Positions 6,373 through 10,973 of a stretch of DNA of 64,000 nt are shown here, piece after piece. Source of the DNA: Escherichia coli (GTDB taxonomy: Bacteria > Pseudomonadota > Gammaproteobacteria > Enterobacterales > Enterobacteriaceae); assembly GCF_036507355.1 (NCBI RefSeq), contig NZ_AP027877.1, one strand, 5' to 3'. The stretch's first letter is position 1. Every line of letters begins with the position of its first letter. The notes under the pieces are model-generated. The model saw nothing but the letters and a program-made list of their open reading frames with translations, did not search any database and had not been told where the DNA came from. The position numbers and the translations under genes are program-made.

Positions 6373-6737
6373 CCACCACGTGGGGGTAAAACCCCGCGTA
6401 TTGAATTGTGATGGTTTGGTCTCCTGCACCCTTTTTTAAATTTATATTTTTTATGTGAATATATTGTCTCTATTTATTATTATGAATTTCAAATGAAAAT
6501 CATAAATTTATTCACAATATAAATGTTTTATTGGCTGATATATATCACAGATAATTTTTAAAATATGCGTAAATATCCTTTAAGTTTACTGAAGGATAAA
6601 AATATTGTGACTTTCTTTGATTTCTGGGGAAAAACCCGACGCGACGAGAAAGAAGGGGGTGACGACTATCACCTTCTTTGCTGGCATTCGCTGGATGTGG
6701 CCGCGATGGGCTATTTAATGGTTAAAAGAAATTGCTT

Positions 6738-6746
6738 CGGGCTGGC
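6738..6746. repeat. IS1 target-site duplication, left copy (CGGGCTGGC)
   Basis: Identical 9-mer immediately flanks both IS1 ends. Confidence 0.85.
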
Positions 6747-6761
6747 GGTAATGACTCCAAC

Positions 6762-7265
6762 TTATTGATAGTGTTTTATGTTCAGATAATGCCCGATGAC
6801 TTTGTCATGCAGCTCCACCGATTTTGAGAACGACAGCGACTTCCGTCCCAGCCGTGCCAGGTGCTGCCTCAGATTCAGGTTATGCCGCTCAATTCGCTGC
6901 GTATATCGCTTGCTGATTACGTGCAGCTTTCCCTTCAGGCGGGATTCATACAGCGGCCAGCCATCCGTCATCCATATCACCACGTCAAAGGGTGACAGCA
7001 GGCTCATAAGACGCCCCAGCGTCGCCATCGTGCGTTCACCGAATACGTGCGCAACAACCGTCTTCCGGAGCCTGTCATACGCGTAAAACAGCCAGCGCTG
7101 GCGCGATTTAGCCCCGACATAGCCCCACTGTTCGTCCATTTCCGCGCAGACGATGACGTCACTGCCCGGCTGTATGCGCGAGGTTACCGACTGCGGCCTG
7201 AGTTTTTTAAGTGACGTAAAATCGTGTTGAGGCCAACGCCCATAATGCGGGCTGTTGCCCGGCAT
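6762..7265 (-). CDS. insB: IS1 transposase InsB (InsAB' C-terminal part)
   Basis: 167-aa [30 protein letters not shown] ... NIKHYQ. Confidence 0.9.
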
Positions 7266-7459
7266 CCAACGCCATTCATGGCCATATCAATGATTTTCTG
7301 GTGCGTACCGGGTTGAGAAGCGGTGTAAGTGAACTGCAGTTGCCATGTTTTACGGCAGTGAGAGCAGAGATAGCGCTGATGTCCGGCGGTGCTTTTGCCG
7401 TTACGCACCACCCCGTCAGTAGCTGAACAGGAGGGACAGCTGATAGAAACAGAAGCCAC
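7184..7459 (-). CDS. insA: IS1 InsA (transposition repressor / InsAB' N-terminal part)
   Basis: 91-aa [43 protein letters not shown]. Confidence 0.9.
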
Positions 7460-7514
7460 TGGAGCACCTCAAAAACACCATCATACACTAAATCAGTAAG
7501 TTGGCAGCATCACC

Positions 7515-7523
7515 CGGGCTGGC
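7515..7523. repeat. IS1 target-site duplication, right copy (CGGGCTGGC)
   Basis: Identical to 6738..6746. Confidence 0.85.
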
Positions 7524-9451
7524 TGATTATTTTCGTCAATTAGGGATTTCTGACAAGGAACAGGCGGCTCAATTTTTCGCCTGGTTGTTGTGCTGGCACG
7601 ATATTGGAAAATTTGCCCGCTCATTTCAGCAACTTTACCTGCACCCACAACTCAAGGTTCCGGAAGGCGCAAGAAAGAATTACGAAAAGATCTCTCATTC
7701 AACGCTGGGCTACTGGTTGTGGCATCATTATTTAAGTGAATGCGAAGAATTGCTTCCTGCCTCTTCACTCTCTACTCGCAAACTTAAACGTGTAATAGCG
7801 ATGTGGATGCCCATGACTACCGGGCATCATGGTCGGCCCCCTGACCGTATTGATGAACTGGATAATTTTCTGCCTGAAGACAAAGTTGCCGCGCGAGATT
7901 TTCTCCTTGAAATCAAGGCACTGTGTCCGCTCATAGAGATTCCCACATTCTGGGATAATGACGAGGGAGTTGAACTTTTAAAACAACTTTCCTGGTATAT
8001 CTCTGCAACAGTCGTACTTGCAGACTGGACGGGTTCGTCAACGCGATTTTTTCCACGCGTCGCACACCCAATGGATATTAAAGATTACTGGCAGAAAACT
8101 TTAGTTCAGGCTCAAAACGCCTTAACCGTCTTTCCTCCAAAAGCAGAAACCGCACCTTTCACCGGAATTAATACGCTGTTTCCTTTTATTGAGCACCCGA
8201 CACCATTACAGCAAAAGGTGCTGGATCTGGATATCAGCCAGCCAGGGCCACAGTTATTTATTCTGGAAGACGTGACTGGCGCAGGTAAAACAGAAGCGGC
8301 GCTTATCCTGGCGCACAGGTTGATGGCTGCGAGGAAAGCACAGGGTTTGTTTTTTGGCCTGCCAACAATGGCAACGGCCAATGCCATGTACGATCGGCTG
8401 GTCAAAACCTGGCTTGCTTTCTATTCGCCAGAGTCCCGCCCCAGCCTGGTGCTGGCACACAGTGCCCGCACATTAATGGACCGCTTTAATGAATCACTCT
8501 GGTCCGGTGATTTAGTCGGGTCAGAAGAACCGGATGAACAAGCGTTCAGTCAAGGATGTGCAGCCTGGTTTGCCGACAGTAACAAGAAGGCTTTACTGGC
8601 TGAAATTGGCGTCGGCACGCTGGATCAGGCGATGATGGCGGTGATGCCGTTCAAACATAATAATCTGCGGCTTCTGGGGCTGAGTAACAAAATCCTGCTG
8701 GCTGATGAGATCCACGCCTGTGACGCTTACATGTCATGCATTCTTGAAGGGCTGATCGAGCGGCAGGCGCGTGGTGGAAACAGCGTCATTTTGCTTTCTG
8801 CTACGTTATCCCAACAGCAGCGCGACAAACTCGTCGCCGCCTTTGCGCGTGGCACAGAGGGCCAGCAAGAAGCTCCGTTCCTTGAAAAGGATGATTACCC
8901 CTGGCTGACGCATGTCACGAAATCCGATGTGAACTCACACCGGGTAGCGACGCGCAAAGACGTTGAGCGTAGCGTCAGCGTGGGTTGGCTTCATAGTGAA
9001 CAAGAGAGTATTGCGCGTATCGAATCGGCGGTAAGTCAGGGAAAATGCATCGCCTGGATCCGCAATTCTGTCGATGACGCTATTAAGGTTCATCGTCAGC
9101 TGCTTGCCCGCGGCGTCATTCCCGCTTCCAGCCTTTCACTCTTTCATAGCCGCTTTGCTTTTAGCGATCGCCAGCGAATCGAAACGGAAACGCTGGCACG
9201 CTTTGGTAAAAATTGTAATTTAAAAAGATCATCGCAAGTCATTGTTTGTACACAAGTAATTGAGCAAAGTGTGGATATTGACCTGGACGAAATGATCTCC
9301 GACCTTGCCCCCATTGATTTGCTGATCCAGCGAGCGGGGCGATTACAGCGACATATCCGCGATATTAATGGTCAGTTAAAGCGTGACGGAAAAGACGAGC
9401 GTTCCCCTCCTGAATTGCTGATTCTGGCCCCCGTCTGGGACGACGCTCCTG

Positions 9452-9781
9452 GTGACGAATGGTTCGGCAGTGCCATGCGTACGCGCCTTTACAGAGGCCG
9501 CGCTTAAAGTCTCACCAACCGGAAAACAAAACAGCTTTGCCAGCCGTGCCTACGCCTCCTGGGCGCTGGCGGAAAAAGGCACTGTTCAACCGCGTTCTCT
9601 GGCGGCGGCTTTCTATGAACCCATTAATGGTACCCGTCAGTTAGATGTGGCGGTGCAGCGTATTACAACGCTTCGCGAAAACATGAATACGGTCTACGAA
9701 CAGAAGACTGAATGCGCAAGTTTTGACGTGATGAACAAACAGGGAAGCATGAAGGACGTACTGGACTTTATCTGCGCGTAA
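9452..9781 (+). other. cas gene remnant: either the 3' end of a Cascade gene (likely cas7e/casC) or a frameshifted Cas3 C-terminal segment
   Basis: 109-codon ORF in the +1 frame relative to cas3, overlapping its end by 55 nt; its stop lies 10 nt before the casD-like start with an intervening SD (aagggg), an operon-internal spacing. Confidence 0.35.
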
Positions 9782-9791
9782 GGGGCGGCTT

Positions 9792-9870
9792 ATGAGCCAA
9801 TATCTGATTTTTCAGCTTCATGGGCCAATGGCATCCTGGGGCGTCGATGCCCCCGGCGAAGTGCGTCATA
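9792..9870 (+). pseudogene. casD: casD (cas5e) 5' remnant, about 25 codons, fused out of frame to cas1
   Basis: N-terminus MSQYLIFQLHGPMASWG matches the Cas5e N-terminus as I remember it from E. coli (MRSYLILRLAGPMQAWG); similarity is lost where the Cas1 frame begins. Confidence 0.6.
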
Positions 9871-10683
9871 CCCATGATCCGCACGCACATTCCGGTGGGA
9901 TCGGTCGCCTGCATTATGCTCGAACCGGGAACGAGAGTTTCCCACGCGGCGGTGCATCTGGCCGCCACGGTGGGAACACTGCTGGTCTGGGTCGGTGAAG
10001 CGGGCGTTCGCGTTTACTCTTCCGGACAACCCGGAGGGGCGCGGGCAGATAAATTACTCTACCAGGCAAAGCTGGCTTTAACGGAAGATCTACGCCTGAA
10101 GGTGGTGCGCAAAATGTATGAATTACGTTTTCGTGAGCCACCGCCAGCTCGCCGTTCAGTGGATCAGCTACGGGGAATTGAGGGATCCCGCGTTCGCCAG
10201 ACCTATGCATTACTGGCGAAACAATATGGTGTGAAATGGAATGGTCGCAAATACGATCCTAAAGACTGGGAAAAAGGCGATGTTGTGAATCGCTGCATCA
10301 GTGCTGCCACATCATGTCTGTACGGTATTTCTGAAGCGGCAGTATTAGCCGCGGGATATGCGCCCGCTATTGGATTTATTCATAGTGGCAAACCGCTTTC
10401 ATTTGTTTATGACATAGCCGATATCATTAAATTTGATTCGGTTGTGCCAAAGGCATTTGAAATAGCGGCAAGACACCCGGCAGAACCTGATAAAGAAGTC
10501 AGATTAGCCTGTCGCGATATTTTCCGTAGCACTAAGTTAACGGGCAAATTAATACCGTTAATTGAGGAAGTCCTTGCTGCAGGTGAAATTGAACCACCAC
10601 AACCCGCGCCGGATATGTTACCGCCTGCCATCCCTGAACCTGAAACGCTGGGTGATAGTGGTCACCGGGGGCGCGGCGGATGA
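9871..10683 (+). pseudogene. cas1: cas1, 5'-truncated (lacks about the first 35-40 codons); C-terminal catalytic domain retained
   Basis: Homology to type I-E Cas1 starts at IRTHIPVGSVACIMLEPGTRVSHAAV and runs to the stop; upstream in-frame codons (MGQWHPGASMPPAKCVIP) derive from the casD remnant in another frame; stop overlaps cas2 start (GATGAGCATG). Confidence 0.8.
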
Positions 10684-10973
10684 GCATGGTCGTGGTTGTT
10701 ACAGAAAATGTCCCTCCGCGCTTACGTGGACGGCTCGCAATCTGGCTATTGGAAGTGCGTGCCGGTGTGTATGTTGGTGATACATCAAAACGTATTCGGG
10801 AGATGATCTGGCAGCAAATTACCCAACTGGCTGGTTGCGGAAATGTGGTGATGGCCTGGGCGACCAATACCGAGTCGGGTTTTGAATTTCAGACCTGGGG
10901 AGAAAACAGACGTATTCCGGTGGATTTGGATGGGTTACGTTTGGTTTCTTTTCTTCCTGTTGATAATCAATAG
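10680..10973 (+). CDS. cas2: CRISPR-associated endoribonuclease Cas2 (type I-E)
   Basis: 97-aa [37 protein letters not shown]; overlaps the cas1 stop. Confidence 0.9.

Follow-up and report, generated by a model that had tools for sequence, protein, structure and literature searches.

Two variants of the type I-E CRISPR-Cas locus of Escherichia coli, E1 and E2, have been described together with their linkage to hok/sok and to the leader (Almendros et al., 2014; PMC3903273), and likewise, as cas-EO and cas-EK, together with their repeat types (Diez-Villasenor et al., 2013; PMC3737337). The hok/sok module is present in all strains except E2 carriers, and the GC content is 53.5% for E1 versus 45.6% for E2 (PMC3903273). 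Repeats of the GTGTTCCCC form go together with cas-EO/E1 (PMC3737337). I-E loci are frequently found in a degraded state with IS insertions, and the number of repeats falls as the cas genes decay (Touchon and Rocha, 2010; PMC2886076). Both the E1 variant and the decay of such loci are already published.

The stretch of DNA analysed here (the window) comprises 64,000 nt of the E. coli contig NZ_AP027877.1 (assembly GCF_036507355.1). At 6565–10973, between cysH-hok/sok and iap, it holds the remains of a single type I-E cas operon at the usual chromosomal site (cysJIH-hok/sok … iap-cysDNC); of the 8554 bp of the operon, 3641 (∼ 43%) are left. We conclude with high confidence that this interval is a pseudogenized E1 (cas-EO, non-K-12) variant of the E. 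coli I-E locus, made by three lesions (Table 1). All E1-linked markers were found: hok/sok beside cysH, the E1-type leader and GTGTTCCCC ('type A') repeats. The sok RNA matches Rfam RF01794 (105 bits at 6079–6235), and hok is intact, its product being 98% identical to Hok of an E1 strain and matched by NCBIfam HokA. The remnants have a GC content of 50.6%, near the 50–53% of E1 (versus ∼ 45% for E2); the EC1515 operon, an intact E1 locus, has 50.8% and the K-12 cas operon 44.8%.

Table 1. Features of the degraded I-E locus and its surroundings (positions in the window).
Feature	Position	Strand	Remarks
hok/sok toxin-antitoxin module	6079–6372	+	hok ORF 6220–6372; context, marker of the E1 arrangement
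cas3 (E1) 5′ fragment	6565–6746	+	cas3 nt 1–182; ORF starts MRKYPLSLLKDKNIVTFFDFWGK, continues into IS1, stop at 6768
Target-site duplication, left copy	6738–6746		9 bp, CGGGCTGGC; read from sequence
IS1	6747–7514	−	768 bp; insA 7459–7184, insB′ 7265–6762, A6C frameshift motif, imperfect terminal inverted repeats
Target-site duplication, right copy	7515–7523		9 bp, CGGGCTGGC; read from sequence
cas3 middle fragment	7515–9481	+	nt 174–2140 of 2700; no internal stop
Deletion junction 1	9480–9482		3515 bp gone versus EC1515; 2-bp microhomology (TA)
cas7e 3′ fragment	9482–9781	+	last 100 codons and stop
cas5e 5′ fragment	9792–9877	+	nt 1–86, then out of frame into cas1
Deletion junction 2	9876–9878		∼ 1.4 kb gone; 2-bp microhomology (GA)
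cas1e 3′ fragment	9877–10683	+	codons 40–307; NCBIfam cas1_ECOLI (TIGR03638), profile 36–268 of 269
cas2e, intact	10680–10973	+	97 aa; NCBIfam cas_CT1978 (TIGR01873) full-length, profile 1–87 of 87
CRISPR2.1 leader, E1 type	10974–11069	+	96 nt, AT-rich, 25% GC
Short CRISPR array	11070–11281	+	3 repeats, 3 spacers, degenerate terminal repeat 11253–11281
Repeats	11070–11098, 11131–11159, 11192–11220	+	61-nt spacing
Spacers	11099–11130, 11160–11191, 11221–11252	+	last spacer also at the end of the EC1515 array

An ORF beginning MRKYPLSLLKDKNIVTFFDFWGK at 6565 and a 97-residue Cas2 ORF ending at 10973 are both present. The original prediction described Cas3 as unlike its K-12 counterpart, and this is borne out: the Cas3 pieces are 31.6% identical to K-12 Cas3 at the amino acid level, Cas7 gave no match to K-12, and blastn-level similarity to K-12 was not found between 6223 and 9875. 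The prediction erred in calling Cas1 and Cas2 near-identical to their K-12 counterparts: the identities are 84.5% and 86.2% for the proteins and 70.9% for cas1-cas2 at the nucleotide level. Synonymous sites between E1 and K-12 are saturated in cas1, cas2 and cas3 (pS versus K-12 0.72–0.82). From these contrasts the prediction had drawn two readings, an alternative I-E gene set or a recombinant, and only the former is sustained. Segment-by-segment mapping was carried out against the intact E1 loci L006 and L014. The cas3, cas1 and cas2 remnants are 98–100% identical at the nucleotide level (200-nt windows) to a single intact E1 locus, that of EC1515, and the proteins cluster with E1, with amino acid identities to EC1515 of 99.2–100% for Cas3, 98% for the Cas7 fragment, 98.9% for Cas1 and 100% for Cas2. 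Another E1 strain, B4103-1, gave 99.3% for the Cas1 fragment and 100% for Cas2. Since every remnant matches EC1515, the locus represents the alternative (E1/cas-EO) set and not a mosaic.

A mosaic, in which K-12-type (E2) cas1-cas2 had recombined with cas3 of another variant, is very improbable, although the identity of Cas1 and Cas2 to K-12 is far above that of Cas3. In every 100-nt window identity was 57–80% to K-12 versus 84–100% to the E1 panel, and no window of cas1-cas2-leader exceeded 80% to K-12; cas1-cas2 are thus closer to E1 than to K-12. Cas2 has the E1 length of 97 aa (94 aa in K-12), and the leader and repeat type are those of E1. The same uneven pattern is found between intact E1 loci and K-12, where Cas1 (84%) and Cas2 (86%) stand apart from the remaining six proteins at 22–37% (Cas3 32%, CasA 22%, CasB 25%, Cas7 33%, Cas5 36%, Cas6e 31%). 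In 80 loci drawn from many gammaproteobacterial genera, Cas1e shows 76–95% identity to K-12 Cas1 irrespective of the type of Cascade, and for that reason ∼ 85% identity is the family background. Cas1 and Cas2 seem 'K-12-like' only because Cas1e and Cas2e evolve very slowly and are exceptionally conserved. Neither as a whole nor through donated cas1-cas2 does the locus belong to the K-12 (E2) variant, for which cas1-cas2 would have to be much more similar to K-12 than to E1 loci at the nucleotide level; the opposite was found. Cas3 is not as close to K-12 as Cas1 and Cas2 are, so the outcome named in the original prediction as speaking against it was not seen. However, this comparison cannot separate an alternative set from a mosaic, whereas comparison with intact E1 loci can, and favours the alternative set.

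For the I-E family, as distinct from the locus at 6565–10973, the chances are about even that the cas1-cas2-leader-repeat unit of this clade acts as a cassette that is swapped between highly diverged interference modules. K-12 Cas1 and Cas2 are 93–95% and 86–89% identical to those of loci in Enterobacteriaceae UBA5654, Raoultella terrigena and Citrobacter portucalensis, in which Cascade and Cas3 are only ∼ 30% identical to K-12 and cas3 is inverted. Citrobacter amalonaticus has the Cascade nearest to K-12 (Cas7 74%, Cas3 57%), yet its Cas1 is merely 86% identical. Nucleotide similarity to K-12 becomes detectable at, or within ∼ 20 nt of, the cas1 start codon. The E1 Cas1 and Cascade identities drop together across Salmonella, Klebsiella and Citrobacter. 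If such exchange took place, the 'mosaic' would be the K-12-type locus or a third type, not the E1 locus described here.

A patchwork within E1, in which homologous recombination mixed E1 alleles of different E. coli lineages and no K-12-type genes were involved, is a tenable proposition, if somewhat less probable than not. It is compatible with a decayed E1 locus. Relative to EC1515, cas3 and cas1-cas2 are 98–100% identical but the cas7 fragment at 9482–9681 only 92%, making EC1515 an imperfect model of the ancestor for that patch; the flanks are patchy as well, at 90–91% for 5800–6199 and 90–94% for 11621–12220 (inside iap). Values of dS versus CFSAN061769 vary from 0.19 for cas3 to 0.11 for cas1 and 0.03 for cas2, and recombination among E1 Cascade genes has been reported (PMC3903273). 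However, the divergent patch could equally belong to the EC1515 side, and the reference panel is small.

Returning to the decayed E1 locus, no intact cas3 with HD nuclease, SF2 helicase and C-terminal domain is present, the gene being split by IS1 at nt 182 and cut at nt 2140 of 2700. The 5′ fragment aligns to L006 4568–4749, and Cas3 residues 1–61 are identical to EC1515 Cas3 (96.7% to B4103-1). The middle fragment (99.75% nucleotide and 99.2% amino acid identity to EC1515 cas3) keeps the HD motif, Walker A (GAGKT) and DEIH but lacks the C-terminal ∼ 186 aa; NCBIfam Cas3 PRK09694 covers profile positions 52–665 of 878, and its score of 367 bits falls short of the 569-bit cut-off. The inserted element has all the attributes of IS1: length, terminal repeats (both ends were checked), insA/insB′ with the A6C motif at IS position 307, and a target duplication in the 8–9-bp range. 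It is 99.0% identical to an annotated IS1B at the nucleotide level, NCBIfam transpos_IS1 matches both ORFs, and L002 2940–2948 aligns at both sides of it. The Cascade genes (casA(cse1), casB(cse2), cas7e, cas5e and cas6e) have not survived as a set. In tblastn searches with the EC1515 proteins, CasA, CasB and Cas6e had no match at the locus, only residues 252–351 of Cas7 were recovered, and in the Cas5 match no more than the first ∼ 29 residues are genuine. The cas7e fragment covers NCBIfam casC_Cse4 profile 248–325 of 325, and the cas5e fragment, aligned to L006 10538–10623, covers casD_Cas5e profile 1–38 of 230. GenBank holds an E. coli protein (BED21181.1) identical to the 109-aa Cas7 fragment. 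The original prediction had overlooked IS1, the two internal deletions, the loss of Cas1 codons 1–39 and the split, truncated state of Cas3.

We propose the following history. A first, 3.5-kb deletion with 2-bp microhomology left cas3 nt 2140 joined directly to the final 302 nt of cas7e, taking with it the Cas3 C-terminus, casA, casB and most of cas7e; the missing segment corresponds to the 3′ 560 nt of cas3, casA, casB and cas7e nt 1–754. A second, 1.4-kb deletion, again with 2-bp microhomology, joined cas5e nt 86 to cas1 nt 117; most of cas5e and the whole of cas6e were lost, and cas1 was deprived of its start and of codons 1–39 (cas5e nt 87–747, cas6e and cas1 nt 1–116). The third lesion is the insertion of IS1 into cas3 at nt 182 with its 9-bp duplication. 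Some contigs carry the first lesion alone and others the first two, which suggests the order deletion 1, deletion 2, IS1. Junction 1 is seen in the independent contigs L007, L008, L012 and L013, and junction 2 in L007, L008, L009 and L013 but not in L012. The sibling contigs L007, L008 and L013 have both junctions without IS1 and are 99.95–100% identical to the window at the nucleotide level. The proposed order rests on short contigs, and L012 (574 bp, 99.0% identical to the window) may represent a collateral line and not the immediate intermediate.

Misassembly is common at IS elements and repeats, but it is scarcely conceivable that the deletions or IS1 are assembly artefacts, as both junctions recur at 99–100% identity in independent assemblies, namely NCBI GCA_905398585.1, Logan ERR3330519 and SRR31122001 and ENA metagenome contigs, and IS1 lies between clean direct repeats formed by 9 bp of duplicated cas3 sequence. 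The exact combination of junctions is absent from all 5,426 complete RefSeq E. coli genomes searched.

The adaptation genes are not an intact pair either, cas2e being full length and cas1e truncated. The listed ORF (9820–10683) starts with 19 unrelated residues from out-of-frame cas5e DNA; the cas1 fragment lacks the native start and codons 1–39 but has no stop or frameshift over its 268 codons, and the catalytic residues E141, H208 and D221, all downstream of the break, lie in invariant alignment columns. The leader is followed by 29-nt type-2 repeats with ∼ 32-nt spacers. The interval 10877–11069 is 100% identical to EC1515, and in the sliding comparison the segment that begins at 10974 shows 67% identity to K-12 versus 94–97% to the E1 panel. 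In the repeat nearest to the leader, a C in the stem has been replaced by G.

Judged by its gene content, the locus would support neither crRNA processing nor target binding, as Cascade and Cas6e are gone, nor interference, as Cas3 is split and lacks its C-terminal part. Spacer acquisition is very probably absent too, because Cas1 lacks its native start and N-terminal strands. The minimal array of three spacers fits such an absence. Some residual function, with truncated Cas1 and intact Cas2 serving as a nuclease or in repair, or with the array used in trans by another cas set, seems unlikely. The intact cas2, the open cas1 fragment with its catalytic residues and a leader identical to that of an intact locus are consistent with it. 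However, cas1 has been deprived of its start codon, of 39 N-terminal residues and of its ribosome-binding context, the array lacks a Cas6e for its processing, and the leader-proximal repeat has its stem mutation. The low dN/dS is a legacy of the time that preceded the deletions; since the siblings are 99.95–100% identical, decay has not had time to become visible.

The strain should thus be scored as being without a working I-E system (no Cascade, broken cas3, truncated cas1) and the locus typed as E1, not as a hybrid. The significance beyond correct annotation is small. Identity of ∼ 85% to K-12 Cas1e/Cas2e is uninformative about the I-E variant; the variant can be told from Cas3 or Cascade proteins, from the leader and from whether the repeat starts GTG or GAG. 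The sibling contigs offer a small, clean case of stepwise CRISPR-Cas loss by deletion, deletion and IS insertion.

In comparison with known systems, the locus shares with the E1 variant (O157:H7 type; CRISPR-I arrangement A and IS- or deletion-derived minor arrangements; PMC3903273, PMC3737337) the cysH-iap site, hok/sok, the leader, the GTGTTCCCC repeats, a GC content of ∼ 50% and remnants identical to 98–100% at the amino acid level. It differs in that it has no casA, casB or cas6e, only fragments of cas3, cas7e, cas5e and cas1, and an IS1 within cas3. With the E2/cas-EK locus of K-12 (ygcB-casABCDE-ygbT-ygbF) it has in common the subtype, the chromosomal site, a nearly identical 29-nt repeat and Cas1/Cas2 at 84–86% amino acid identity, but K-12 differs in its lower GC content (44.8% versus 50.6%), its leader, its repeats, which start GAG instead of GTG, and the lack of an intact hok (sokX only). 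Other I-E loci have decayed independently, by a casA-cas7 deletion (L002), by a cas3-casA deletion (L004 and L005) or by IS1 at another cas3 site together with a cas3-cas7 deletion (L003). The degraded I-E loci of Shigella, Salmonella and other E. coli (PMC2886076) resemble the present one in IS insertion, cas truncations and deletions and a shrunken array, whereas the junctions and the IS1 site described here are specific to this lineage.

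The interval 6565-10973 is flanked by queD-cysJ-cysI-cysH on one side and by iap (minus strand) and cysD-cysN-cysC on the other, the genes of the standard E. coli CRISPR-I site. Its cas remnants were compared with the K-12 MG1655 locus (the E2, or cas-EK, variant) and with several non-K-12 loci of complete E. coli genomes, protein identities being taken from tblastn. The Cas3 pieces of the window are 31.6% identical to K-12 Cas3 (46.7% over 30 aa for the N-terminal piece, again by tblastn) versus 93.5-96.7% to B4103-1 and 99.2-100% to EC1515, both of which carry E1 (cas-EO), the non-K-12 variant of E. 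coli type I-E. No nucleotide-level alignment to K-12 was obtained across 6223-9875. The original prediction that Cas3 is not K-12-like is borne out, but its claim that Cas1 and Cas2 are near-identical to K-12 is not. The Cas1 fragment has 84.5% identity to K-12 versus 99.3% to B4103-1 and 98.9% to EC1515; Cas2 has 86.2% versus 100% to each of the two E1 strains. At the nucleotide level cas1-cas2 is 70.9% identical to K-12, and in 100-nt windows cas1, cas2 and the leader range from 57-80% against K-12 and 84-100% against E1 loci. Values of pS against K-12 (Nei-Gojobori) are 0.82 for cas1, 0.72 for cas2 and 0.81 for cas3, all three saturated. Judged from these comparisons, Cas1 and Cas2 of the window are conserved homologues, not K-12 alleles.

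A mosaic of K-12-like cas1/cas2 with cas3 of the other variant had been proposed. In 200-nt windows, cas3 is 99-100% and cas1-cas2-leader 98-100% identical to EC1515; this places both ends of the operon in one E1 sub-lineage and makes the mosaic reading wrong. The other reading offered, an alternative gene set, is right: the remnants match E1 throughout, as do hok/sok, leader, repeat type and GC content (50.6% for the remnants versus 44.8% for the K-12 operon). The E1 marker hok/sok adjoins cysH (Rfam sok 105 bits; hok present), the leader is of E1 type and the repeats begin GTGTTCCCC, the form tied to cas-EO (PMC3737337). The nearest intact relatives in the collection are EC1515 and nine similar genomes; cas3 is 99.7% identical in ten complete E. 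coli genomes, and the best identity to E. coli is ∼ 94-95% over the locus and 98.9% in the flank. A value of 95.4% for cas1-cas2 against EC1515, from a long BLAST segment, was set aside because the inclusion of unrelated spacers inflates the difference. Departures from EC1515 are limited to positions 9482-9681 in the cas7 fragment (92%) and to patches in the flanks, which fit the recombination within E1 reported by Almendros et al. (PMC3903273). The Cas7 fragment is identical to the GenBank E. coli protein BED21181.1. A Shigella origin, suggested by the modest best identities over the locus and flank, was rejected in view of this match and of the ten E. coli genomes at 99.7% in cas3. An iap patch (11621-12220) is only 90-94% identical in nucleotides to every E. 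coli reference compared, yet the Iap protein is 98.6-99.1% identical, so most of the differences appear synonymous; this segment was probably imported by recombination.

The contrast between Cas1/Cas2 and Cas3 belongs to the E1 and K-12 variants as wholes. An intact E1 locus (CFSAN061769) has 84% (Cas1) and 86% (Cas2) identity to K-12 versus 32% for Cas3, 22% for CasA, 25% for CasB, 33% for Cas7, 36% for Cas5 and 31% for Cas6e. Scanning species-representative genomes with an alignment of Cas1 yielded 80 loci (Enterobacterales, Oceanospirillum, Marinomonas, Methylophaga, Gilliamella and others) in which Cas1 is 76-95% identical to K-12 Cas1, irrespective of whether the adjoining Cascade is E1-like, K-12-like or of a third type. 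Identity reaches a plateau at ∼ 76-86% that is uncoupled from Cascade type, and ∼ 85% is therefore family background. Such protein identities recur in many gammaproteobacterial orders (L016-L095), even where nucleotide identity is only about 71-77%. The sequences indicate that Cas1e is under unusually strong purifying selection. Selective constraint alone was rejected as the cause of the contrast with Cascade: within E1, omega of Cas7 (0.035) is not above that of Cas1 (0.07), yet the two are 33% and 84% identical to K-12, so simple rate scaling fails. Loci with E1-type Cascade from Salmonella, Klebsiella and Citrobacter are 92-95% (Cas1), 84-88% (Cas7) and 67-73% (Cas3) identical to E1; by these identities E1-type loci co-diverge and E1 is internally coherent. 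The Cas1 on contig L040, which is labelled 'MAG: Bacillota bacterium', has 99% identity to that of E. coli E1; mis-binning or contamination is the probable cause.

The loci nearest to K-12 in Cas1 (93-95%; Cas2 is 86-89% identical) are those of Enterobacteriaceae UBA5654, Raoultella terrigena and Citrobacter portucalensis (L016-L018). Their Cascade and Cas3 are ∼ 30% identical to K-12, cas3 is inverted, and nucleotide similarity to K-12 starts at or within ∼ 20 nt of the cas1 start codon. Citrobacter amalonaticus, whose Cascade is the closest to that of K-12 (Cas7 74%), has a Cas1 of only 86% identity. There are hints here that the adaptation module was exchanged long ago, an event that would have involved the K-12 type, not the locus of the window. 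Since cas1-cas2 is only ∼ 77% identical in nucleotides even in the comparison with L016-L018, no recent exchange has taken place.

The decay was mapped on two intact E1 loci (L006 and L014), and each truncation is matched by NCBIfam profile coverage. Of the 8554 bp of the operon, 3641 bp remain. The original prediction pointed to this interval but overlooked the IS1 and both deletions within it.

Features of the cas remnants and array in the window
Feature	Position	Strand	Details
67-aa ORF	6565-6768		start MRKYPLSLLKDKNIVTFFDFWGK
cas3 nt 1-182	6565-6746		
9-bp duplication	6738-6746 and 7515-7523		CGGGCTGGC, flanking IS1
IS1	6747-7514	transposase on minus	768 bp, A6C frameshift motif, imperfect terminal repeats
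IS1 ORFs (two)	within 6565-10973	minus	
Cas3-like ORF	7501-9507		668 aa
cas3 nt 174-2140	7515-9481		open throughout; HD, GAGKT and DEIH motifs
Small ORFs	9452-9781 and 9792-9998		
Deletion 1 (cas3-cas7e)	9481/9482		3515 bp, TA microhomology; lost: last 560 nt of cas3, casA, casB, cas7e nt 1-754
cas7e-cas5e remnant	9482-9877		last 100 cas7e codons, intergenic spacer, cas5e nt 1-86
Cas1-like ORF	9820-10683		287 aa
Deletion 2 (cas5e-cas1)	9877/9878		∼ 1.4 kb, GA microhomology; lost: rest of cas5e, all of cas6e, cas1 nt 1-116
cas1 codons 40-307, then intact cas2	downstream of 9877/9878		
Cas2 ORF	10680-10973		97 aa
Repeats (three)	11070-11220		29 nt, 61-nt spacing

Exact-protein matches to the 287-aa Cas1 fusion ORF were found on contigs from GCA_905398585.1, ERR3330519 and SRR31122001, 99.95-100% identical to the window. 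Of these contigs, two extend across cas3 and have both deletions but no IS1; the SRR31122001 contig begins at window position 9621, and only deletion 2 is visible. Both junctions are also present, at 100% identity, on a 529-bp metagenome contig, and a 574-bp metagenome contig has junction 1 and continues into cas5e without deletion 2. The deletion junctions are not assembly artefacts. An exact search of GTDB species-representative genomes with the 40-nt deletion-2 junction gave no matches, and the 67-aa ORF, in which the N-terminal part of Cas3 reads through into IS1, has no exact protein match on record. The lesions likely arose in the order deletion 1, deletion 2, IS1. Against more distant E1 loci, dN/dS is about 0.13-0.14 for cas3 and 0.02-0.03 for cas1; most of the divergence is therefore older than inactivation and the lesions are recent.

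Without Cas6e and Cascade, neither crRNA maturation nor target recognition would be expected from the gene content. Cas3, now also split, lost its C-terminal ∼ 186 residues with deletion 1; Cas1 has lost its start together with the first 39 residues and retains E141, H208 and D221. On this gene content, the best reading of the locus is a dead relic in which cas2 is intact and the array vestigial. Three good repeats are followed by a degenerate terminal repeat, and the last spacer of the array also closes the EC1515 array. Such a short array fits the reported association of cas decay with repeat number (PMC2886076). Spacer 1 (11099-11130) occurs in none of 5,426 complete E. coli genomes and spacer 2 (11160-11191) in 308 complete E. 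coli genomes, O157:H7 among them; neither has a protospacer in the phage or plasmid collections searched. The leader-proximal repeat (11070-11098) reads GTGTTCCCGGCGCC...; its position 9 has changed from C to G, which disrupts one pair in the hairpin stem. One of the sibling contigs without IS1 (L008) covers this repeat and is 100% identical to the window there.

The window also differs from K-12 outside the cas locus. The rpoS-mutS variable region (22408-25343) is unlike K-12 and has, in place of ygbI-ygbN, a 135-aa ORF (by its look a putative MarR-type regulator) and ORFs of 197 and 475 aa; other E. coli records annotate hydroxyarylic acid decarboxylase genes in this region. Between ygbA and fhlA, ∼ 0.5 kb absent from K-12 (29295-29807) holds a 155-aa two-repeat ORF (29336-29803, minus strand), by eye a putative molybdenum-binding Mop/TOBE-like protein. 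A 1.67-kb insertion relative to K-12, between hycI and ascB (43674-45345), contains a 257-aa ORF (43677-44450) and an overlapping pair of 103-aa and 139-aa ORFs (44612-45339), a putative HigB/HigA-type toxin-antitoxin pair.

The two divergent E. coli I-E sets, their linkage to leader, repeat type and hok-sok, and whole-module replacement have been published (PMC3903273, PMC3737337, PMC2886076), and IS- and deletion-mediated decay of I-E loci is frequent and likewise already published. Four of the six non-K-12 loci compared carry their own independent deletions. B4103-1 has a casA-cas7 fusion and NCTC9041 and A14 a cas3-casA fusion, each by internal deletion; NRZ99027-2 has IS1 at another site in cas3 together with a cas3-cas7 fusion. 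Of 5426 complete genomes, 2738 carry E1-type cas3. The locus of the window is an ordinary decayed member of this common, already known variant.
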